From: Escherichia phage vB_EcoM_G2469
Direction: 5' to 3' (one strand)
Sequence record: MK327934.1
Length of the DNA: 64,000 bases
Below are positions 2,520-33,154 of this stretch, one piece after another (positions within the stretch are counted from its first letter, which is position 1; each line of letters starts with the position of its first letter). The notes under the pieces were generated by a model. That model searched no databases. It was not told the origin of the DNA and saw nothing but the letters and a program-made list of their open reading frames with translations. Position numbers and translations under genes: made by a program.

Positions 2520-3620
2520 TTACGCTGTGAAGATTTTATCCCACATCGCAACAACTGCATCTCGGTTATACTTCTTCCATACTGCTTCAGCACGTTTAAC
2601 TCGAGCTTCGTATGTGTCAGTGAATTCTAATACAGCTTTTGTGTAAAGCGCAACTACTTCTTTCTTAGGAGTAGAGGAATCAATTTCTACACGCACAGTA
2701 TCTGGGTCGTATTCGAATGTCGCATGAGGATAATCCTTAAAAACTAACTGAATTACAGGGACACCTTTAGAGATGGCTTCAATAGAACTATTCTCTACCG
2801 TACCTGTGTCAGGACACGTATTAATAAGTGCTTTAGCTATTTTAAGGCGTTCCATGATTTCACTGTGTGGAGCATCAATAATAACAGGATATTTAGCTGG
2901 TGGCGCCCATTTGCTTGGACAGTATCCTGCACCATTTTCGCCTAGTGCTTTAATCGCTTCAAGAGCAACATCAGTACGACGCATTTTAGTGTCATAACGT
3001 TGTGCACTAATAATCAGATCCGTCGCCGGAAGAACTTCAGGTTTATCATTCAAACAAATAACCGGATAATCTTCGGCTTCAAACAACGGATTTGCTCGCC
3101 AATAATCATAATCAATTTTGTCAGTCAGACCTGAAGTCATATAACAATATTTGCGTTCAAATTCACGGAAGGCTTTAGTAGGAGCATAACTCTTACCACC
3201 GTTCTTATGAATTTGAATAGTCTGGTCCCAAATTTGAACAATGCCACGAGATACCGGTTCAAATGGTGTTGCCATAAAATTCTTATGAACTTTAGAGAGA
3301 CCTGCGTCTTTAATTGCCTGAACGGTTAGTTTAGTCGGTTCCATAGTAACAACAAAATCGTATTCATGGATGCCGGCTAGTTCAACAATCTTACGAGCCA
3401 TAGTATAACTCATACCTAGACTGAATTTTGTCAGATGACCAACAGGATGATGATTAACTTTCCAGTCACCAAATGTGTCATTATCAAAACCGATATAATC
3501 AATATCAGCACCGATGGACACAAGATATTTCAACACATTTAAATGTACTGCTTCAAGACCACCTTGTACACGGTCAGGATTAAATGGGACTGCACGAGAT
3601 GGGATAAACATAACTTTCAT
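2520..3620 (-). CDS. glycosyltransferase, GT-B/GT4-like (candidate DNA hmC sugar transferase)
   Basis: 366 aa; N-terminus MKVMFIPSRAVPFNPDRVQGGLE is typical of GT-B retaining glycosyltransferases; sits where T4 has gene 60/mobA. Confidence 0.7.
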   Translation of the reverse strand: MKVMFIPSRAVPFNPDRVQGGLEAVHLNVLKYLVSIGADIDYIGFDNDTFGDWKVNHHPVGHLTKFSLGMSYTMARKIVELAGIHEYDFVVTMEPTKLTVQAIKDAGLSKVHKNFMATPFEPVSRGIVQIWDQTIQIHKNGGKSYAPTKAFREFERKYCYMTSGLTDKIDYDYWRANPLFEAEDYPVICLNDKPEVLPATDLIISAQRYDTKMRRTDVALEAIKALGENGAGYCPSKWAPPAKYPVIIDAPHSEIMERLKIAKALINTCPDTGTVENSSIEAISKGVPVIQLVFKDYPHATFEYDPDTVRVEIDSSTPKKEVVALYTKAVLEFTDTYEARVKRAEAVWKKYNRDAVVAMWDKIFTA

Positions 3621-22590: not shown

Positions 22591-23755
22591 CGAAATCTTC
22601 CATTTCGTCAAGGTCGTTTTCTATATCTGCTGCAGACGGAGCATCAGAAGTTTTAACCGGAACTTTAGTTGTTGCTTTGCAATTAATAAGGTCGTTAACA
22701 GCGTCATCAACTTCTTTAATAGAAGAGATAGCACCTAGTTTATATTTAGTTTCAATTGCATCTCGGAAAGGTTTGTGTTTAAACAAAGGTCCCCAGAATT
22801 CTACACAATCAGTAGCTTTAGCACGCCATGATTTTTCTTCACGAATCATTTCACCTGTTTCTTCGTCAAGGAATTCGCGAGCATACCAACCGGCTTTAGG
22901 CTTAACTACAAAACCAATTTCAGTTGCCATTTCTAACAAGCCACTGAATGGGTCAATACCGCCATCAAAATTAACCGTGATCGGGAAAGTAGATTTCTCT
23001 TTAACTGTACGAGATTTTTCCGCTTTCAACGTGAAGTCATAACCGGTCAATTCTGTACCTTCTTTAACCTGACGTTTAGAGATAAAAAATACCGTGTTGG
23101 CAGAATAAAGAATACCTGTACCACCGCCCATAATCTCTTTAGGATACAATCCGCCGATTTCCATTGCTGTATGGTTAATTGCAACACACGGAATATCTTT
23201 AATAGTCAGATAAGGAGTCACAATGCGGAACAGAGATTTAAGTGCCTTAGCACGAGACATATCACCTACAACTTTCTCGTTCAACGCATCTTCGGTTTCT
23301 TTCTTAGATGCAGTATTACCGATTGAATCGATAAAGATAATAACTTTATCACCGCGTTCAATAGCGTCAAGCTGATTAGTCATATCAACTTTAAGTTGTT
23401 CGACAGATTGAATCGGAGTATGAACTACACGGTCTAAATCAACACCCATTGAACGAAAATAAGATTCTGAAGCACCGAATTCTGAGTCATAAAACAAACA
23501 GATTGCATCTTTATATTTCTTCATATACGCTGCAACCATAGTTAGTCCAAACAACGTTTTAAAGTGTTTAGAAGGAGCAGCAAAAATAGTTAAGCCTGAT
23601 TGCAACCCTGCATTCAGTGCACCACCTAATGCGATATTCAACATCGGAATACGAGTAGGGACTTCATCACGATTATTAAACAGCTTAGACTTAGTCAAGT
23701 CTGCAGTCATTTTAGAAGTAGAAGCTTTAATCAGACGAGATTTTAAATCAGACAT
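22583..23755 (-). CDS. uvsX: UvsX recombinase (RecA-like)
   Basis: 390 aa; RecA-fold, T4 UvsX-like throughout. Confidence 0.95.
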   Translation of the reverse strand: MSDLKSRLIKASTSKMTADLTKSKLFNNRDEVPTRIPMLNIALGGALNAGLQSGLTIFAAPSKHFKTLFGLTMVAAYMKKYKDAICLFYDSEFGASESYFRSMGVDLDRVVHTPIQSVEQLKVDMTNQLDAIERGDKVIIFIDSIGNTASKKETEDALNEKVVGDMSRAKALKSLFRIVTPYLTIKDIPCVAINHTAMEIGGLYPKEIMGGGTGILYSANTVFFISKRQVKEGTELTGYDFTLKAEKSRTVKEKSTFPITVNFDGGIDPFSGLLEMATEIGFVVKPKAGWYAREFLDEETGEMIREEKSWRAKATDCVEFWGPLFKHKPFRDAIETKYKLGAISSIKEVDDAVNDLINCKATTKVPVKTSDAPSAADIENDLDEMEDFDE

Positions 23756-23804
23756 TGTATTTTTCCATAGGCATCATTATATTTTACTCATGTTTAAAAG
23801 ATAA

Positions 23805-23836
23805 GATGATTATATACTAAGGGTTATACAGCATTT
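23805..23836 (-). promoter_or_regulatory. candidate middle promoter (MotA-box-like TGCTGTA, 12-bp spacer, TATAAT)
   Basis: minus strand aaaTGCTGTAtaacccttagtaTATAAT upstream of uvsX. Confidence 0.4.
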
Positions 23837-23853
23837 AAAACTTTAAATGGCTC

Positions 23854-24402
23854 TTAACGAGCCCATTTGATGATTTCTGTAATCAAACCATTACGTTCGC
23901 TTGCATTAAATCCTATAACTTTGTTAGCACCATCATGATTAAGTAATTGATATGTTTGGATTTTGTTATGAATTGCAAACTCTTCAAAATGTGAAATGAC
24001 TGTATTAAAACCGAATGAAGACAAAGTAATAAGGTCGTCTTCAAAACTTTCAGTCATTTCGTTACGTGTTAAAATAATTGTGAACACATCATGGTTTTGG
24101 CAAAGACGAACATAATCCTGTTCATAAACGTCAAGAACCGAGTCAGCATCTTGTCGAATACGTCCATAAACCCAGTTACTAATATATCCACGGTCTAACA
24201 GATAAATCTTAGTAGGGTCTAAATAATTCAACATCGTTTCGAAACAGCCAACTTCATTTCGAGACTTAACATCGAAACGCCCATCAACTGTTCGTTTAGG
24301 GAAATCAATCTTTACATATCTTTCACTAATTTCCATTATGTCATTAATGAAAGTTGTTTTACCAGCATTATCTGGGCCATCTACTAAAATAATTTTAGCC
24401 AT
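23854..24402 (-). CDS. P-loop nucleoside/nucleotide kinase-like protein
   Basis: 182 aa; Walker A ILVDGPDNAGKTT near N-terminus. Confidence 0.6.
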   Translation of the reverse strand: MAKIILVDGPDNAGKTTFINDIMEISERYVKIDFPKRTVDGRFDVKSRNEVGCFETMLNYLDPTKIYLLDRGYISNWVYGRIRQDADSVLDVYEQDYVRLCQNHDVFTIILTRNEMTESFEDDLITLSSFGFNTVISHFEEFAIHNKIQTYQLLNHDGANKVIGFNASERNGLITEIIKWAR

Positions 24403-24403
24403 T

Positions 24404-25303
24404 TTATTCCTCGATTACGACATCTTCATATTTAGGTATATTATACGGCGAAGAAATTAAAGCATTAAAGTAGATGAACTCACCAAGACCTGGATGGAAT
24501 ACTTCTTCAGGATTTTCGAAATATTGAATTTTCGGACGCCCTTTAAGAATTTGATAGTACTCTGTTTTAGTTGGTTTAAAAATTCGAATCAGCGCTTCTT
24601 CAGGATACTTATTTCTGTCGAAGCTATTATTTGGATCGGTTATATAAAGCGGTTGGCCTAATTGAATTGCACATTCAACCACTTGTTCAAAACGATAGCA
24701 CGGGTCACTAATTCGAAATGGATGAAAAATACCATCTAGATAAATAGGAGCCAAATCACCTACAAGACGCTGCATGATGGAAGGACGTATAACTTTCTGC
24801 GTTACGATAATCTTATTACCATCTGCACCAGCGTTAACCAGCACTTCTTTTTGACGTTCATTCAACACAGTAGTTTGAAGTGAACGATTAACCGACAACA
24901 TATCAGTTTTTAAGAATTCATCAATATAAAAACGTGGTTTATTAGGGTCTGCAGTGATATTGAAATTGAATTCCACATCAAAAGCGCCGTCATATCCAGT
25001 GATATCTGTGATTAGAAAATCACAGTCATAATAAGCAATTAATGAATCAACCACAAATTCATTTTCAGACCAGAAATATTTACGAGTGTTATACGCGTTA
25101 TCTTTATACCATAATGGAACAAACTTAAATTCTGGAAAAAGACGTTCGCATTCTTTAATATCAGATGCATTACGTGGATATGTAATCACATCACCCGGAT
25201 TAGCACGGTGCAAATGAAGTTGGAAGTTGCCATCCTTAAGGATAGCATACTGTCCAGTTTCATAAGACCGCATACTCAAAATAGGTACGCGGAAAATAGC
25301 CAT
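24404..25303 (-). CDS. hypothetical protein at the beta-gt position (possible second sugar transferase)
   Basis: 299 aa, no resemblance to T4 beta-gt seen; TAATG overlap with gene 42. Confidence 0.5.
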   Translation of the reverse strand: MAIFRVPILSMRSYETGQYAILKDGNFQLHLHRANPGDVITYPRNASDIKECERLFPEFKFVPLWYKDNAYNTRKYFWSENEFVVDSLIAYYDCDFLITDITGYDGAFDVEFNFNITADPNKPRFYIDEFLKTDMLSVNRSLQTTVLNERQKEVLVNAGADGNKIIVTQKVIRPSIMQRLVGDLAPIYLDGIFHPFRISDPCYRFEQVVECAIQLGQPLYITDPNNSFDRNKYPEEALIRIFKPTKTEYYQILKGRPKIQYFENPEEVFHPGLGEFIYFNALISSPYNIPKYEDVVIEE

Positions 25304-26019
25304 TAGTCAAGGAATCCTTTAACATAATCAAAATCACGTTCAAACACATGGGCACTTACCATGGTATGAGTATAATCACCAACTTCTACACCGCATTCGT
25401 TAGCGATATAATGAAGTAATTTTCCTTGGAGATAAAAATCCAACTGCATAACAACAGCACAGTTCTGAGAACGCATATGACAGTGGGTATAAAGCTTACC
25501 ATCACGAATATAATAAGTCACTGAGTCAGTACATGGATATTCAAGCGTTTCGTCTGAATCAAGCAAAGCCTGATCAGAACTTTCTAGAATTTGGAACACA
25601 ACTCTTCGGGAGTTAGGCTTCTCTTTAAGTTCTTTTAGAAGAGCTGGTAATTGGGCCGCAATGCGAGGACCATAGAAAGTGTTGAAGTTCGCCGGCAAAA
25701 CATCTGATTTTGGTTTAGAAATAAATTTAGCGACATTAGGATATGCCTTAAACGCTTCTTCTGCGTTGGTACCACCAGAAATCATAAACTTCCAGAAGTC
25801 TTCGGCATATTCATAAGAGATGCGGTTAATACGTGGGTCGGTCATTTTGAATGATGATGGAGTGTCAACAACTACTGTCATAGACCCAATTTCATTACAA
25901 CGTCCAATACGAGAATCAGTTACGAATTCCGGGTTTTCTAAAATTTCACGATTGACTGTTTTAAATGCGGTTTGAAAATCTGCGGCTTTGATATATTTCA
26001 TTGTGTTATGTTTTCCCAT
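25303..26019 (-). CDS. 42: dCMP hydroxymethylase (thymidylate-synthase fold)
   Basis: 238 aa; T4 gp42-like. Confidence 0.9.
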   Translation of the reverse strand: MGKHNTMKYIKAADFQTAFKTVNREILENPEFVTDSRIGRCNEIGSMTVVVDTPSSFKMTDPRINRISYEYAEDFWKFMISGGTNAEEAFKAYPNVAKFISKPKSDVLPANFNTFYGPRIAAQLPALLKELKEKPNSRRVVFQILESSDQALLDSDETLEYPCTDSVTYYIRDGKLYTHCHMRSQNCAVVMQLDFYLQGKLLHYIANECGVEVGDYTHTMVSAHVFERDFDYVKGFLD

Positions 26020-26061
26020 GTTTACCTCAATACAATTTATTATATACTCAATTCGTAAAGC

Positions 26062-26301
26062 TTATTTGAATTTCTTGACAATGTTGATATAACGTAAAGC
26101 TTCAGCATCGATACTTCCAAGAACACTATGAAGAAATGCATCAGCGTAGTATTCCAATTGAACAGGTTCTTTAATCACTTTAGCCGCTTTAGTTTCAAAC
26201 AGGCCCATCAGGGCCTTTTTAAGAATTTGTTCATTAGTGTTCAGTTTAATAGTCAAAATCTCTTCATTAAGTTGGTGGTTAAAAGTTTTTCTAGAAATCA
26301 T
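26062..26301 (-). CDS. small hypothetical protein
   Basis: 79-aa ORF, ATG start, 4-nt overlap with next gene. Confidence 0.45.
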   Translation of the reverse strand: MISRKTFNHQLNEEILTIKLNTNEQILKKALMGLFETKAAKVIKEPVQLEYYADAFLHSVLGSIDAEALRYINIVKKFK

Positions 26302-27467
26302 TCCGGGTACCTCAAAGCGTCATCAGAGTTAGTTATATCAATAATAGATATAGAGTTTTCTGCTAACCCGTTTTTAGATAATTGACGTTTATAATATCTT
26401 TCACAATATGTACACGTCGTCCCGCAGATTTCATTAGCACAATCGAAATCCGGATGTCTGAACCACCTTTTTTCTAAAAAGCCATCTAACAAAGAGGTTT
26501 CAATATTTACTGTATGTGAAAACTCGGTCTCATTTTCAAGAGTGAAAATAGTCTCTAAAGGCTTCCACAGTTCTAACAAATTACCTTCAAACTTTTCAGA
26601 AGCGTATGCTTCAAGAACTTTCAAAATGTAGTCTGTGCTACCTGTACGTCCTGAAACTTTGAATTGAGTGATACCAATATCATTATAAAGTTTCAAATCT
26701 TGAGGACGAACAAAACGAGTTCTCAGCCAGTTAAATGGGTCTGTATCACGAGCTTTAATGCAGTGTTGCATTGGATATCCATTTAAGGATTTAGCATCAT
26801 CAGCGGTAACATCAGTACTATGGAAAATATAGCAAGAGTCACGATAGCTACAATGTGTTGTATACCCTTTACCAGCATTAGAACAGAACTCATTTACAAG
26901 AACTTCAAATATTATATTGTTCTTATTGCAAAACTCTGCTGCACGCTTCAGGAAAGAAACTGAACGGTTCTTATGAATTCCGCAGCAGACCTTTTTGATA
27001 TTATACTGGTCATGCAAGTATTTGATTTGAGTTACAGCATCGACATGTAGAATTGTTGAAACTTCAATCTCAATGTCTTTATTGACTTCACGAACAATTT
27101 CCATAACAACAGGGTTAGCGATAGTAATACGCCATACGCCTATTGACCAAAGATACTGAACATAATCCTGAATAGCTTTCTTCTTCCACTCAACTAGTTC
27201 TCTTTTTGAACCAGGATTTATCGTGTTGAGTGTATAGTTAAAGCAAATACCTAATTCGTTACAACGTTTAACGTAGTCTTCTAACATCTTTTTGTCAACG
27301 TCAGGAAGCCTAAAATCAGGTCTGGCTGCTACAAAAGCCATTTCTCTTGTAGAGCCATATACTTCGTTTATCAAGCTATTAGGATAGGTTTTATTGAGCT
27401 CTACGATTTTATCAAGAAGAGCTAAATCAAAATTCGTTCCGATTTTAAAAGTATTCATTTTTTGCAT
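26298..27467 (-). CDS. hypothetical enzyme with C-terminal Cys cluster
   Basis: 389 aa; C-terminal C-x4-C-x3-C-x2-C (CANEICGTTCTYC) contains CxxxCxxC; second CSxxxxxxxxHCSxxxxC stretch. Confidence 0.55.
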   Translation of the reverse strand: MQKMNTFKIGTNFDLALLDKIVELNKTYPNSLINEVYGSTREMAFVAARPDFRLPDVDKKMLEDYVKRCNELGICFNYTLNTINPGSKRELVEWKKKAIQDYVQYLWSIGVWRITIANPVVMEIVREVNKDIEIEVSTILHVDAVTQIKYLHDQYNIKKVCCGIHKNRSVSFLKRAAEFCNKNNIIFEVLVNEFCSNAGKGYTTHCSYRDSCYIFHSTDVTADDAKSLNGYPMQHCIKARDTDPFNWLRTRFVRPQDLKLYNDIGITQFKVSGRTGSTDYILKVLEAYASEKFEGNLLELWKPLETIFTLENETEFSHTVNIETSLLDGFLEKRWFRHPDFDCANEICGTTCTYCERYYKRQLSKNGLAENSISIIDITNSDDALRYPE

Positions 27468-27513
27468 CTCGCGTTAATTGATGCGATGGTTTTTGCAGGT
27501 CTTACTTAAATTA

Positions 27514-27915
27514 TTATAGATTCGGTTTATACGATTTAAATGTTTCGAATTCGCCTTTATTCATAAGAGCTTTGAATTCGTCAGGACGCATAGCTTTGTC
27601 GTCGATAATCCAATCATATACTGGTTTATGTGTTAGCAAATTATGGTACTTCAAGCCAATGTTTGCCAAGTTCTGAATCAGACTTGGGAGAATGTCAATT
27701 GCTATACGACCAGGACCTACTGACTTCATACCGCGAGCAGTGTAAAGCGTTATGGTATGCCCTGCATCATACAGGGCATTAATGGCAGACACCATTTCGA
27801 CGTCTGGTTTGAAGTTCACGTAATCACGATTGTTATTCCACTCTGTTATACAATCATCGACATCAAAACAAAGATTAAGCATGTTTTCTACACGGTGCAT
27901 TAGATTCGTTCCCAT
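27514..27915 (-). CDS. HAD-superfamily phosphatase (GmhB/KdsC-like)
   Basis: 133 aa; motif I FDVDDCIT near N-terminus; alternative start at 27900 in TAATG overlap. Confidence 0.6.
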   Translation of the reverse strand: MGTNLMHRVENMLNLCFDVDDCITEWNNNRDYVNFKPDVEMVSAINALYDAGHTITLYTARGMKSVGPGRIAIDILPSLIQNLANIGLKYHNLLTHKPVYDWIIDDKAMRPDEFKALMNKGEFETFKSYKPNL

Positions 27916-29585
27916 TGATGAGTGATATCGCCACCGATTGGACGATAGGAAACACCAGTTTCTTTATCAGTTAGTACCCATTTACCAGGATTTTTTGTAA
28001 TCAGAGTAGCCGTTACAGGTTCTGCTACGTCATAACTAATAGAGCCGTCCTGAAGTACACGGCCCATGTTACGTAATTGCTTAGTCAGAAGTTCCATACC
28101 TTTATAATATGCGGCTACCGCTTTAAGTGGATTATTCTTGAAATAACCACCTAATGCAATCCAGATAATTGCCACAGCCAAATGATGATATTCATTAAAC
28201 GAACTCAGCTTTCCATATTTGTAAACTAATGGATTGATGTTAATAGTCACATTACAAGTTGTTTCATCAATAGTAAACTGTCCCCAGGTCGGATTAGCAT
28301 TGAATTCATCATAACCTGAAACAGCATAAAGCACTTTAGCTTCATCATACAATTTTGGCCCGTAAATCTTGGTTTCACCAAAATATCCACGAGGGTCGAT
28401 AAATTTGACTTCGCCGTTATCAGTAATCATAGTATTACTGAAGTTCGGGTCACCATGAATAACAGAGTACTGTCCCTGAGAACGGTTATGATAACGAATA
28501 AGGTGTTCTAAAGCTTGTTTCAGCATTGGCTTCAGACGTCCAATCTTAGTGTAGTTCACATGTGTGATTTTACCAAATGAATCAATCAATGGTTGAATGC
28601 TTTCACAACGATCAATAACTTTCGTATAGAATTCTTTAGTGAAATCACGACGAACAGTTTCAGGACTTACAAAATAAGTGTCTGTGCTGAATTTCAGTGC
28701 ATCTAAAATTGCATCAACAATTTGTGGACGAGCAAGACTTGATTTGGATTTAATATATTCAAATGCCGGCTTACCTTTAATGCGTTCCATTTCAAAGTTA
28801 TTTTCATTAACAGAAACTAACTGAGGAACTGAATCTGATTTCACTTTAAGATACCATGAAATCTCATCTTTCTGAAGAGCTCGACCTTGTTCAGTTAATG
28901 CGAATTTAGTTACAGTTTCTTCACCAATTTCAACTGCATTAAAACTACGATTAAGTTCACGAACTTCATGAGCCTTTTCAAGTTTAGGCATATCACCAAG
29001 GTCGATGATATTCATAAGCTCTGATTTATTGAATGCGCCGCTGTAAAGGAATTCTACGAAATCACGTCCTTTGCAGTATTCATGAATTTCCTCATCGGTA
29101 GAACCCATGTAGAATTCCCAGTCTTTGAACTGGTAAATTCCCACAACATTACCACCTGTTGAACCTACGTTAGTGATATTTTCACCATCGAAATTATATC
29201 GACATTCGTCACCCTTAACATAGATTGCGTTAACATTCCAAGACCATGAACCAAAATCAGGAATAATATCACACCAGTTAACAATTACGTTATGGCCGTC
29301 TAAATCTTTGTGTAATTTAGCAAGAGCATAAGCAGAACCATACGCTTCATCGACTGTACGAATAGTCACATTGAACCCTTCTTGCTCACAATAAGCTCGA
29401 ACAGTTTCAGCAAATTTTGAATGAACTACTACAATAATTTCATCTGCGCCAAGGTCAGAATAAATTGTATACAAATTGCTCAGAATAGTGTCTTGTTTAT
29501 AGTTAACAAGCACCTTAGGAATATGGTGAGTAATTGGATATAAACGAGTTGCCAATCCAGCACCAAGAATAACAGCTTTTTTCAT
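27900..29585 (-). CDS. bifunctional sugar-phosphate nucleotidyltransferase / sugar kinase
   Basis: 561 aa; N-terminal MKKAVILGAGLATRL nucleotidyltransferase signature; C-terminal HGDPNFSN...IDPRG kinase motif. Confidence 0.75.
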   Translation of the reverse strand: MKKAVILGAGLATRLYPITHHIPKVLVNYKQDTILSNLYTIYSDLGADEIIVVVHSKFAETVRAYCEQEGFNVTIRTVDEAYGSAYALAKLHKDLDGHNVIVNWCDIIPDFGSWSWNVNAIYVKGDECRYNFDGENITNVGSTGGNVVGIYQFKDWEFYMGSTDEEIHEYCKGRDFVEFLYSGAFNKSELMNIIDLGDMPKLEKAHEVRELNRSFNAVEIGEETVTKFALTEQGRALQKDEISWYLKVKSDSVPQLVSVNENNFEMERIKGKPAFEYIKSKSSLARPQIVDAILDALKFSTDTYFVSPETVRRDFTKEFYTKVIDRCESIQPLIDSFGKITHVNYTKIGRLKPMLKQALEHLIRYHNRSQGQYSVIHGDPNFSNTMITDNGEVKFIDPRGYFGETKIYGPKLYDEAKVLYAVSGYDEFNANPTWGQFTIDETTCNVTININPLVYKYGKLSSFNEYHHLAVAIIWIALGGYFKNNPLKAVAAYYKGMELLTKQLRNMGRVLQDGSISYDVAEPVTATLITKNPGKWVLTDKETGVSYRPIGGDITHQWERI

Positions 29586-29626
29586 GTTGTGGTCCTCATT
29601 GGTAAGTAGGAGTATTGTACACTATT

Positions 29627-29770
29627 CTAGTTAAAGCATTCATACTTTGCTTGTAGTCCAATCATAATCCATCCAATTACAAGTGTTGGAATCATTACCG
29701 GAGCCGTTAAGCTCCAGTAGATAGTCATGACAAGCATCAATAGTAAAAGTCCTATTGTTATTGCTTTCAT
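29627..29770 (-). CDS. small membrane protein (47 aa), not in ORF track
   Basis: MKAITIGLLLLMLVMTIYW...; ATG overlaps upstream stop as ATGA. Confidence 0.35.
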   Translation of the reverse strand: MKAITIGLLLLMLVMTIYWSLTAPVMIPTLVIGWIMIGLQAKYECFN

Positions 29771-30402
29771 TGTTCGCCTCGTAACATGGCACCTAGTGCA
29801 CCGCCTGGATGGAACTTAAGGAAATCATTAGAGGTAAATCCACGTTCAGACGAAAGGTTGATAGCAAACGTATCGATAAGCGCTAACAACAATGTAGTGG
29901 ACATTGTCGGAGCTAAAGAGTTCTCGTCAACTTCTACCGCGATACCAGTACAGAACGTATAATCAAAAAGAGCTTCGTATTCTTGTGGAATGTCAGGGTT
30001 ACAATGTAACAGAATCTGTTTAACCTGAGGACGAATCATACGAAGATGTTTAGCAACACCTATCATTTCTTCAGTCTTACCAGAACGACTAATATGAATC
30101 AACACGTCATTAGGTGCAATAAATCCTGCGTCACCATGAGAATAATGCCCAGTGTTCAAATACATGCTAGGAATACCTAGTGAAGCAAATGTCTCGGAAG
30201 CTTTAGTTGCGATATTAGCATTCTTACCAACACCTGTAATAATTACCCGGCTTTCATAATTACTAAGTCCAGGGCGTCGAAGAGTTTCTAGAATAGCATT
30301 ATAACGAGCAGGGTTTTGACTAATTACTTTGGCCATAGCGGCCAAAGAAGAAGCTTGTTTTATGATTGCGTCAATAGCGATAGTAATAGGAGTAGTTTTC
30401 AT
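29767..30402 (-). CDS. SIS-domain sugar-phosphate isomerase (GmhA/KdsD-like)
   Basis: 211 aa; SIS motifs VGKNANIA and HISRSGKTEE. Confidence 0.75.
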   Translation of the reverse strand: MKTTPITIAIDAIIKQASSLAAMAKVISQNPARYNAILETLRRPGLSNYESRVIITGVGKNANIATKASETFASLGIPSMYLNTGHYSHGDAGFIAPNDVLIHISRSGKTEEMIGVAKHLRMIRPQVKQILLHCNPDIPQEYEALFDYTFCTGIAVEVDENSLAPTMSTTLLLALIDTFAINLSSERGFTSNDFLKFHPGGALGAMLRGEQ

Positions 30403-30442
30403 ATTTCTCTCATTTAATTAGTTTACCGTCCATGACATTATA

Positions 30443-33154
30443 TCAAAAATCGAACATATCGAACAGAGATGCTTTCTTCTCATAATCGAGTTTCGCTGCT
30501 GATGTGAATCCTTCAAGTGGTTTAATAAATGTCTTCTCAAGGAGAACAGTGTAGTCCATCCAATGAAGTACATCGTCTTTAATTAAATCTGTGATTTCAG
30601 TACCAGAAGGCCATGCGATACATTTATCACCGAATGGGTTTCCTTCACGTAAAGGCAGAACATATACTTTTTCACCTTCTACAACTTGTGGTGCATCAAT
30701 ATTACCTTTGATAGCTCGGTTATATGTCAGAATTCCACGAATATGGAACGGGCATTTAGGACCAGGGAATCCACCGACATCATATTTAGCAATGTTATTC
30801 GCAGAAGATACCGACGCGATGCTAATATAATTCAATTGACGGAATTCTTTTTCAAACTCTTTAAAATATTCTTGTAATGATTCTTCACCTTCTTGAAGCA
30901 TACGACGAATACATTCTTTAAGAGCTTTCTGTACTGCTTTAGGGGTCGAAGATTTCTGAGTTTCTAGACCCATGATTTTGAGTTTAGGCTCAGCGTAACG
31001 AGTACCTTCCATATCCCACACGTTTAATGCATAACGTTTCTTACCAGTCCAAAATCCACCAATACCTTTAGAACCGAGCGGAGGGCCAGCAATAGCTTCT
31101 CGGTCCATGAACATCAAATGTTGCTTATTATTCATGTATTCGCACATTTCACGGAAACCTCTATCAATAGCAGGTTCCATACGTTCACGAGCGAACTTAT
31201 CTAAGAAGTCTACCCAATGGTTGGTATCACGGAATTTAGATTCACCAACCTTATCAATAATTTTATCTGCAGATACGTAAATGGAGTCTGTATCACCATA
31301 AAGAACGAAAGCTTCACCTTCTGTACCGCAAACTTCATTCAGATATTCATTAACTTTACGTTCAATCCACTGTAAAGCCATTTGCCCGAATGTTGTGATT
31401 GCAGTAGCATTACGCAAATCATAATAACGGAACCAAACGTTTCCAAGTGCACCATAAAGCGAGTTGATGAGCAATTTACGGTTAATCTGTGCAGTCATAC
31501 CTGCAACTTCAGTACGTTGAGCTCTAAACAACATTTCATTAAGAGATTTAGCAGACAACTTTTTAATCTTTTCTTTAATCTCATCACTGAAGTCGAAACG
31601 ATAATCAACATCTAATGGTTCGTCAACAGAAAGATTAGGATTATGCAATGCCTCTTTAATTATTTCACCATTACGTTGAGCTGCAAGCATATAACCTTTA
31701 TGTTCTTTACGTTGATTAAAGACCTTAGTGATTTCAGTTGGAACTACACCATCACGGTCTTTATAATACATCATGCCGTTAGGAGAGCAACTGTACACAT
31801 CTGAAGGACGTTCAGCGATTGCGTTAATATAATCATGCAATGGAGCTACTTTAAACGTTCCTGCTATTGTTTCCGGGCTAATATTCACTTGGCGAATAAT
31901 ACTTGGATACAGAGATGTAAGGTCGAAACTCATTACATATTTGTATCGATTTGGAATAGGTTCCTTAACAAAAGCGCCGGGATAAGGTTGAACCGGGTGA
32001 GAACGACCTTGTGGAATCACCTTGTTCTGCTCTTTAAGGCTATTAAAAATAATAGCATCCCATGTTTTAATTGGGCTAAACACAGATTGAATCTGTATCT
32101 TAGCATAATAACCCATGTCCAAGCTCAAGTTGATGAACTGACGCTTAGCATCAATTTGCAATACACGATACACGTCGATAATGTTATAAGAAATATATCG
32201 TTGGTGATTGCTTTCACGAAGCTTAGAAATAGGGCCGTCATATTTCAGTTTACCAACGTTCAATTCAAATTCTGAAATGTAATCCAGAGAATACGACGGT
32301 TGATTGGTAAAAGAGAATTTTTTGTAAAGGTCAATGTAATCAAGAACAGAGATACCGAACAATGTAATGATTTCACGAGAACCATACATGTTTTCGATAA
32401 CTTTAACACGAGTTTTACGATGCGGTGATAAACGTTTCGCAGTAGATTCGCCAAAAATATTCTTGATTCGGTTATACACATATGGAATATCAAATGACTC
32501 AACGTTCCATCCAGTCAAAATGACAGGAGTTTTCTGTTGCCAGAAGTTGAGATATTCCATCAACAATTCTTTTTCGTTATCGAACGGCATATAAATGATT
32601 TTATCGATAATTTCAGATGGAACTTCATCACCACCTTGTTCTTGAAGCTTAGCCGCAATTTCGATAGACCATTCTTCTACATTACCATATGGAGAATTCA
32701 ATAGATCAAATACGTAGAACCTGTCGTCAATTGAGTCATAATGGGTGATAGCATCAATCGGATGTTTTGCTTGTGACGGCTCAGGGAACCCGTCTGGAGA
32801 TGTTACTTCGATGTCGAAGTTAGCCACACGAATTTTTGTATGGTCGTATTTGATTTCATAGTTATAAGTGTCAGACAAATACGCCAATTTGAAATCGTCC
32901 ATGCCAAGTGCTTCAAGTCCGATATCTTCCATGCGTTTAATCCATTGGGAGGCATCACGCATATTAGCGAACAACTTACGAGTACACGGCTTACCGTAGA
33001 TATCGAAATATTTCGTAGCCTGACTTTCTGGACAATGAGCAAACAGTGATGGTTTATATTCTACTTCACGAGTACGTTCACGGCCATTAGAATCGATGTA
33101 ACGTTCAAAAATTGAATCACCAATCTGTTCAACCGTTAAGTAAAATTCTTTCAT
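30443..33154 (-). CDS. 43: DNA polymerase (family B) with 3'-5' exonuclease
   Basis: 903 aa; exo FDIE, pol motifs DxxSLYPS and YGDTDS; RB69-type N-terminus. Confidence 0.97.
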   Translation of the reverse strand: MKEFYLTVEQIGDSIFERYIDSNGRERTREVEYKPSLFAHCPESQATKYFDIYGKPCTRKLFANMRDASQWIKRMEDIGLEALGMDDFKLAYLSDTYNYEIKYDHTKIRVANFDIEVTSPDGFPEPSQAKHPIDAITHYDSIDDRFYVFDLLNSPYGNVEEWSIEIAAKLQEQGGDEVPSEIIDKIIYMPFDNEKELLMEYLNFWQQKTPVILTGWNVESFDIPYVYNRIKNIFGESTAKRLSPHRKTRVKVIENMYGSREIITLFGISVLDYIDLYKKFSFTNQPSYSLDYISEFELNVGKLKYDGPISKLRESNHQRYISYNIIDVYRVLQIDAKRQFINLSLDMGYYAKIQIQSVFSPIKTWDAIIFNSLKEQNKVIPQGRSHPVQPYPGAFVKEPIPNRYKYVMSFDLTSLYPSIIRQVNISPETIAGTFKVAPLHDYINAIAERPSDVYSCSPNGMMYYKDRDGVVPTEITKVFNQRKEHKGYMLAAQRNGEIIKEALHNPNLSVDEPLDVDYRFDFSDEIKEKIKKLSAKSLNEMLFRAQRTEVAGMTAQINRKLLINSLYGALGNVWFRYYDLRNATAITTFGQMALQWIERKVNEYLNEVCGTEGEAFVLYGDTDSIYVSADKIIDKVGESKFRDTNHWVDFLDKFARERMEPAIDRGFREMCEYMNNKQHLMFMDREAIAGPPLGSKGIGGFWTGKKRYALNVWDMEGTRYAEPKLKIMGLETQKSSTPKAVQKALKECIRRMLQEGEESLQEYFKEFEKEFRQLNYISIASVSSANNIAKYDVGGFPGPKCPFHIRGILTYNRAIKGNIDAPQVVEGEKVYVLPLREGNPFGDKCIAWPSGTEITDLIKDDVLHWMDYTVLLEKTFIKPLEGFTSAAKLDYEKKASLFDMFDF

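Follow-up and report, generated by a model that had tools for sequence, protein, structure and literature searches.

A predicted glycosyltransferase and kinase gene pair next to uvsX in an RB69-like phage, and its probable place in arabinosyl-5-hydroxycytosine hypermodification

Two closely packed minus-strand genes, flanked by uvsX and a thymidylate-synthase (TS) homolog in Escherichia phage vB_EcoM_G2469, probably form the downstream end of the arabinosyl-5-hydroxycytosine hypermodification cluster already known from RB69-like phages. The analysis covered a 64,000-nucleotide stretch of record MK327934.1, referred to as the window. In the five-step pathway proposed for the cluster, the neighbouring TS homolog would hydroxylate dCMP to 5-hydroxy-dCMP, as shown in the literature. 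This nucleotide would then be carried to the triphosphate, as has been shown with the gp1-type dNMP kinase, for incorporation by the phage polymerase; the 182-aa product of the pair would serve as a second pyrimidine dNMP kinase, giving extra capacity in a non-exclusive role. Upstream genes would provide UDP-arabinofuranose (UDP-Araf), whose synthesis has been shown for the homologs of phage HY126 (PMC13326640). The 299-aa GT-B enzyme would use UDP-Araf to attach the first arabinofuranose to the 5-hydroxyl group of cytosine in DNA, and a gp3-like enzyme (2520-3620) would add the second sugar, as the DLP3 data suggest.

The locus and its gene assignments are already known, having been published in 2025-2026, and the locus therefore adds no new system. 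The same system is reportedly described by He et al. 2026 (Nat Chem Biol), as the Afh genes of phage HY126, and by Mahler et al. 2025 (Cell Host Microbe), as Aat. New here are the pairing of transferase and kinase in distant phage contigs, a Morganella phage kinase that occurs without the pathway, and fusions of the kinase to an MBD4-like domain.

Lee et al. (NAR 2026, PMC13326640; bioRxiv June 2025) found mono- and di-arabinosyl-5-hydroxycytosine in RB69 DNA, with the arabinose joined to C5 via an ether oxygen; the arabinosyl-hmC proposed in 2018 is not correct. RB69 gp48 was described as a flavin-binding TS homolog whose product is 5-hydroxy-dCMP and which alone gives rise to 5hodC in E. coli DNA, and the gp1-type kinase gp159 as converting 5-hydroxy-dCMP to the diphosphate. 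The authors proposed gp46:47 as the base-proximal arabinosyltransferase ('arabinosyltransferase 1') and gp3 as the enzyme adding the second sugar, the base-proximal arabinose being alpha-linked; gp45 was predicted to be a nucleotide kinase, without further discussion. Individual DLP3 transferases, including gp79 (the gp46:47 counterpart), were inactive on 5hoC-DNA, and the authors were unable to tell whether the first arabinosylation takes place on the mononucleotide or on DNA (PMC13326640).

Gene layout and identity of the locus

By its sequence, the window is assigned to an RB69-like Mosigvirus, with nucleotide identity over the locus of 98.6% to RB69, 99.7% to phage AV110 and 98.5% to HY126. 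The ORF listing of the window confirmed both genes given in the initial annotation, of 299 and 182 codons, each with an ATG start; the 182-aa protein begins MAKIILVDGPDNAGKTT. The proposed TAATG coupling of the 299-aa gene to its upstream neighbour was likewise borne out, the TAA of the 238-aa ORF and the ATG of the 299-aa ORF sharing this motif. A 1-nt gap separates the 299-aa stop from the kinase ATG (GAGGAATAAAATG), and GAGGAA stands immediately upstream of that ATG. The genes of the pair and the neighbouring pathway features are as follows.

23854-24402, minus strand: 182-aa thymidylate-kinase-fold P-loop kinase (RB69 gp45 homolog), predicted pyrimidine dNMP kinase
24404-25303, minus strand: 299-aa GT-B-fold glycosyltransferase (RB69 gp46:47 homolog), predicted first arabinofuranosyltransferase on 5-hydroxycytosine
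25301-25305, minus strand: TAATG stop/start overlap coupling the TS-homolog and transferase genes (direct sequence reading and ORF coordinates)
25303-26019, minus strand: 238-aa TS homolog, 5-hydroxy-dCMP synthase (Pfam Thymidylat_synt, E 2.3e-15)
26062-26301, minus strand: 79-aa ORF (RB69 ORF049c), between the TS homolog and the U32 gene
26298-27467, minus strand: 389-aa U32-peptidase-family protein (RB69 gp50; Pfam Peptidase_U32, E 7.4e-11)
27514-27915, minus strand: 133-aa HAD-like sugar phosphatase (RB69 gp51, AfhF-like; phrog_1238, E 5.3e-43; role per PMC13326640)
27900-29585, minus strand: 561-aa bifunctional sugar-1-phosphate nucleotidylyltransferase and kinase (RB69 gp52:53, AfhE-like; NTP_transferase, E 8.4e-10)
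29767-30402, minus strand: 211-aa SIS-domain arabinose-5-phosphate isomerase (RB69 gp55; Pfam SIS, E 4.8e-10; phrog_5670, E 1.6e-116)
2520-3620, minus strand: 366-aa gp3-like glycosyltransferase, proposed second (beta) arabinosyltransferase (PMC13326640, PMC6024577)

The 299-aa and 182-aa ORFs are genuine conserved genes rather than chance ORFs, because they have phrog matches and many homologs and recur in about 345 phage records. In RefSeq, RB69 ORF045c (RB69p045), annotated 'thymidylate kinase', is the counterpart of the 182-aa kinase, ORF046c plus ORF047c that of the 299-aa gene, and ORF048c that of the neighbouring upstream gene. The RB69 reference (L001:8705-9605; NC_004928.1 24597-25497) thus breaks the transferase gene in two, and gp52/53 is likewise broken in that record. 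Lee et al. put the ORF046c/ORF047c break down to sequencing error (PMC13326640). The single intact ORF in the window and in about 180 near-identical database sequences agrees with such an error in the RB69 reference; apart from this split, the window gene shows no substantive difference from RB69 gp46:47 or DLP3 gp79.

The pair had been likened in position to T4 beta-gt, said to lie directly between uvsX and gene 42. The comparison is right in general, except that beta-gt is not directly beside uvsX, the T4 order being uvsX-segA-beta-gt-42. Calling the neighbour gene 42 was mistaken. The 238-aa TS homolog is only 25% identical to T4 gp42 but 99% identical to RB69 gp48, a 5-hydroxy-dCMP synthase (PMC13326640), and is nearly identical to PDB entries 9iqc/9ir2/9iqu (E 2.9e-160).

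Further upstream, the 79-aa ORF049c occurs in some enterobacterial-phage clusters only, at 41-99% identity. The 561-aa protein has weak APH-like kinase matches besides its Pfam NTP_transferase match, and the gp52:53-type protein makes UDP-arabinofuranose (PMC13326640). All enterobacterial-phage versions of the cluster include the U32 gene, which is missing from the Acinetobacter-phage loci and from both distant contigs described below. Acinetobacter is a strict aerobe. RlhA, TrhP and UbiU/V are oxygen-independent C5 hydroxylases of the U32 family, and RlhA is annotated '23S rRNA 5-hydroxycytidine C2501 synthase'. The U32 gene might supply an anaerobic 5-hydroxycytosine route for gut phages; this is speculation because comparison with E. 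coli RlhA gave a match in just one short motif (E 0.049), a very weak similarity.

A promoter scan of 23500-30800 gave 19 promoter-like sites, below the 26.2 found in shuffled sequence, and a terminator scan of the same interval gave none that was convincing; operon boundaries are therefore not definable by these scans. By eye, the 98-nt spacer from the kinase stop to uvsX contains a MotA-box-like TGCTGTA 12 nt upstream of TATAAT (23809-23833, minus strand), which resembles a T4-type middle promoter serving uvsX. It was not among the sites that the sigma-70 scan reported.

Predicted folds of the transferase and the kinase

The 299-aa protein matched phrog_3891 (E 1.3e-155) and, in a word-indexed protein search, 138 homologs at E<=1e-3 with identity down to ~36%. 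It is an ortholog of RB69 gp46:47 (98-99% identity) and lies beside the 5hodCMP synthase within the UDP-Araf cluster. No Pfam family at E<=1 and no NCBIfam family was matched, and a PDB sequence search, run also with a 48-sequence profile, returned no match. GT4-type profiles (Glycos_transf_1/Glyco_transf_4) did not recognize the protein either, its likeness to these enzymes being structural only, and the family appears isolated at the sequence level. An AlphaFold2 model built from a 48-sequence alignment (A1; mean pLDDT 94.9) displays the two Rossmann-like alpha/beta domains and C-terminal nucleotide-sugar site of GT-B enzymes. All of its strong structural matches are GT-B glycosyltransferases and none is a nucleotidyltransferase. 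A retaining-type enzyme would fit the alpha linkage of the base-proximal arabinose. The fold matches include PDB 9iqz ('phage HY126 glycosyltransferase', 366 aa), presumably a gp3 homolog, to go by its equal length alone.

Descent from beta-gt was rejected. An hhalign comparison with T4 beta-gt gave a probability of 0.1%, which upholds at the sequence level the earlier statement that no similarity is visible, and T4 beta-GT was not among the top 60 structural matches of the model. The protein was also rejected as a paralog of the gp3-like transferase of the window (hhalign probability <1%). T4 beta-GT is a DNA-binding protein of pI 9.05, whereas the RB69-type transferase family, which has no detectable sequence homology to it, is acidic (median pI 5.3, net charge ~ -10).

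For the 182-aa protein, the phrog_761 profile ('thymidylate kinase') gave E 5.7e-45 and the word-indexed protein search 27 homologs; identity to RB69 ORF045c is 99%. The best structural matches of its AlphaFold2 model (27-sequence alignment, A2; mean pLDDT 87.4) are thymidylate kinases (TMK), and its NMP-kinase fold is closest to Tmk. RB69 gp45, DLP3 gp78 and RL38J1 gp214 represent the same gene, with the same thymidylate-kinase structural matches. The residues invariant in the family (G9, D11, G14, K15 and T16; F34, P35 and K36; D70 and R71) align with 'EGLDKSGKTT...FPQR' of vaccinia TMK and with 'EGLDRTGKTT...FPER' and 'DRYVYS' of yeast TMK, and the protein carries the Tmk motif set, comprising a GxDxxGK[ST]T P-loop, FPxR and a DR after strand 3. 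We take the roles of these residues to be those of their counterparts in established TMK structures. The P-loop motif and thymidylate-kinase fold support the original description of this protein as P-loop kinase-like.

The protein nevertheless differs from canonical Tmk in falling below the curated family thresholds (no PF02223 match; TIGR00041 16.3 bits, cutoff 83.25). Its profile reached PDB TMKs at E 0.007-0.1 only, and the PDB holds no solved structure that matches it by sequence. The family is small, with 291 representatives among 1.84 billion proteins, and forms a phage-specific clade apart from canonical TMK. Assignment as a gp1-type dNMP kinase was discarded, no structural or sequence similarity to T4 gp1 (PDB 1dek) being found; its role is presumed to be analogous to that of gp1, phosphorylating a modified dCMP from a TS-family enzyme. 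The 5-hmdU DNA kinases of thymidine hypermodification act on the DNA base. A kinase role of this type is unlikely here because the ring oxygen remains as the glycosidic bridge.

The profile and structure searches that the initial annotation had proposed as a check thus returned a GT-B fold with a nucleotide-sugar site and a thymidylate-kinase fold. Its outline of a sugar transferase with an accessory kinase stands, given the folds, the linkage and the RB69 annotation; it was wrong on the chemistry, which is that of 5-hydroxycytosine. Its numbering of the transferase as a second one is reversed, the 299-aa protein being the predicted first, base-proximal enzyme and gp3 the proposed second (PMC13326640).

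Linkage of the pair and kinases in other settings

By tblastn, the transferase was found in 348 phage records and the kinase in 343, and their genus profiles are the same. The order SIS, nucleotidyltransferase/kinase, HAD, (U32), TS, transferase, kinase is kept in about 13 IMG/VR loci, in a set of 11 enterobacterial-phage loci (including L005 and L007-L015) and three Acinetobacter-phage loci. The kinase is followed by uvsX in the enterobacterial-phage loci and directly by a gp3-like transferase in the Acinetobacter phages. Two metagenomic contigs of 355 kb and 168 kb, both very distant, also have TS, transferase and kinase in this order, with identity of 36-38% for the transferase and 28-30% for the kinase. 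In Dhakavirus the coordinates imply kinase, TS, transferase, so that the trio stays together in variable order. A scan of IMG/VR with the kinase profile found 17 loci only, mainly in Straboviridae.

Distant versions of the cluster share Flavodoxin_2/FMN-reductase genes with the TS homolog: directly upstream of it in L004 (6715-7275), two genes downstream in L026 (9068-9613) and ~6 kb off in L003 (1-523). Such neighbours fit the flavin dependence of 5hodCMP synthase. Pfam and tblastn scans of the RB69-like cluster, which were not aimed at flavodoxins, yielded no such gene.

Morganella phage vB_MmoM_MP1 (NC_031020.1) encodes a kinase homolog between DNA polymerase and uvsX (L022:20500-21030), with 54% identity and 37/37 family-invariant residues. 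When the transferase, the hydroxylase (5hodCMP synthase), gp3 and the arabinose-pathway genes were sought in the whole MP1 genome by tblastn, none had a homolog there; MP1 also encodes a gp1-type dNMP kinase. Retention of the kinase thus does not require the modification.

Nine or so relatives of the kinase (314-357 aa) carry a fused C-terminal domain of the MBD4-type HhH-GPD DNA glycosylase class. Those located in metagenomic or phage-like contigs are listed here.

L026:8001-9074: kinase-MBD4-like fusion
L027:127-1092: kinase-MBD4-like fusion
L030:6205-7173: kinase-MBD4-like fusion
L031:2233-3201: kinase-MBD4-like fusion

In a profile search the fused domain matched the PDB MBD4 glycosylase domain at E 3.7e-20. 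The invariant Asp of the fusion motif GKYAxDS aligns with the Asp in GKYGNDS of MBD4, which we take to be the catalytic Asp. Neighbours of the fusions in phage-like contigs include TS homologs, glycosyltransferases, an FMN reductase and a SIS isomerase. No description of a kinase-glycosylase fusion was found in the literature searched for this locus.

Competing readings of the pair

The assignment of the pair to the arabinosyl-5-hydroxycytosine pathway is favoured by the 98.6% identity to RB69, the co-occurrence of transferase and kinase and the conserved gene order. Against it stand the inactivity of DLP3 gp79 on 5hoC-DNA, the acidic transferase, the kinase scores under the Tmk thresholds and a report on Thanatos protein TH1_063. 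Nor is the need for gp45 evident, because the gp1-type kinase handles 5hodCMP and gp48 alone gives 5hodC. In a different route, the 299-aa enzyme would arabinosylate free 5-hydroxy-dCMP and the 182-aa protein would be a dedicated kinase for the bulky sugar-nucleotide; the glycosylated nucleotide would be raised to the triphosphate and used by the polymerase, and only later sugars would be added on DNA. A second kinase is sensible for another substrate, since the gp1-type kinase already takes 5hodCMP, and the adjacency of transferase and kinase is kept across very distant lineages. The inactivity of the counterpart transferase on 5hoC-DNA, with the substrate level left open by its authors (PMC13326640), points the same way, as does the acidic character of the transferase family beside T4 beta-GT, overall charge being weak evidence. 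However, the MP1 kinase, with all its invariant residues, persists without transferase, hydroxylase or arabinose genes, and the Dhakavirus arrangement means that gene order is no mirror of such a pathway. Moreover, all T-even sugar modifications known so far take place on DNA, as do the later additions of arabinose. We therefore consider a nucleotide-level first arabinosylation unlikely. If it were true, it would be the first case of a sugar modification of phage DNA built partly at the nucleotide level, and would explain both the conservation of the pair in unrelated lineages and the inactivity on 5hoC-DNA.

MP1 also bears on another account of the kinase, as a general pyrimidine dNMP (dTMP-like) kinase of nucleotide supply that is merely located in a variable region. 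An intact copy beside uvsX, at the same position, in a phage without the whole pathway speaks for this account, and thymidylate kinases are the best structural matches, with TMK motifs present. It sits poorly with the near-perfect co-occurrence of kinase and transferase in ~345 phage records, with the adjacency to TS and transferase genes in unrelated phage types, and with a family so small and distinct from canonical TMK; RB69-type phages, too, already carry a gp1-type dNMP kinase. On balance this account is improbable. The suggestion of the initial annotation that the two genes might be an unrelated nucleotide-metabolism pair is not supported for the 299-aa protein and keeps a small probability for the kinase, because MP1, which lacks the pathway, retains an intact copy.

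For the transferase, Brandt et al. found that TH1_063, a 300-aa GT-fold protein encoded beside the Thanatos TS homolog and likely the counterpart of the 299-aa transferase, has UDP-xylose pyrophosphorylase activity. The 299-aa protein might by analogy be a UDP-pentose pyrophosphorylase supplying the activated sugar rather than a cytosine transferase. This seems very improbable: the strong structural matches are all GT-B glycosyltransferases, the cluster already contains a bifunctional kinase/nucleotidyltransferase for UDP-Araf, and a first-sugar enzyme is required, for which this protein is the sole candidate in mono-arabinosylated Thanatos.

The preferred reading remains that the pair completes the arabinosyl-5-hydroxycytosine cluster. 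The pathway shields the DNA of Mosigvirus and related phages from many restriction enzymes and from type I CRISPR-Cas, and resistance based on such modification bears on phage therapy and phage engineering.
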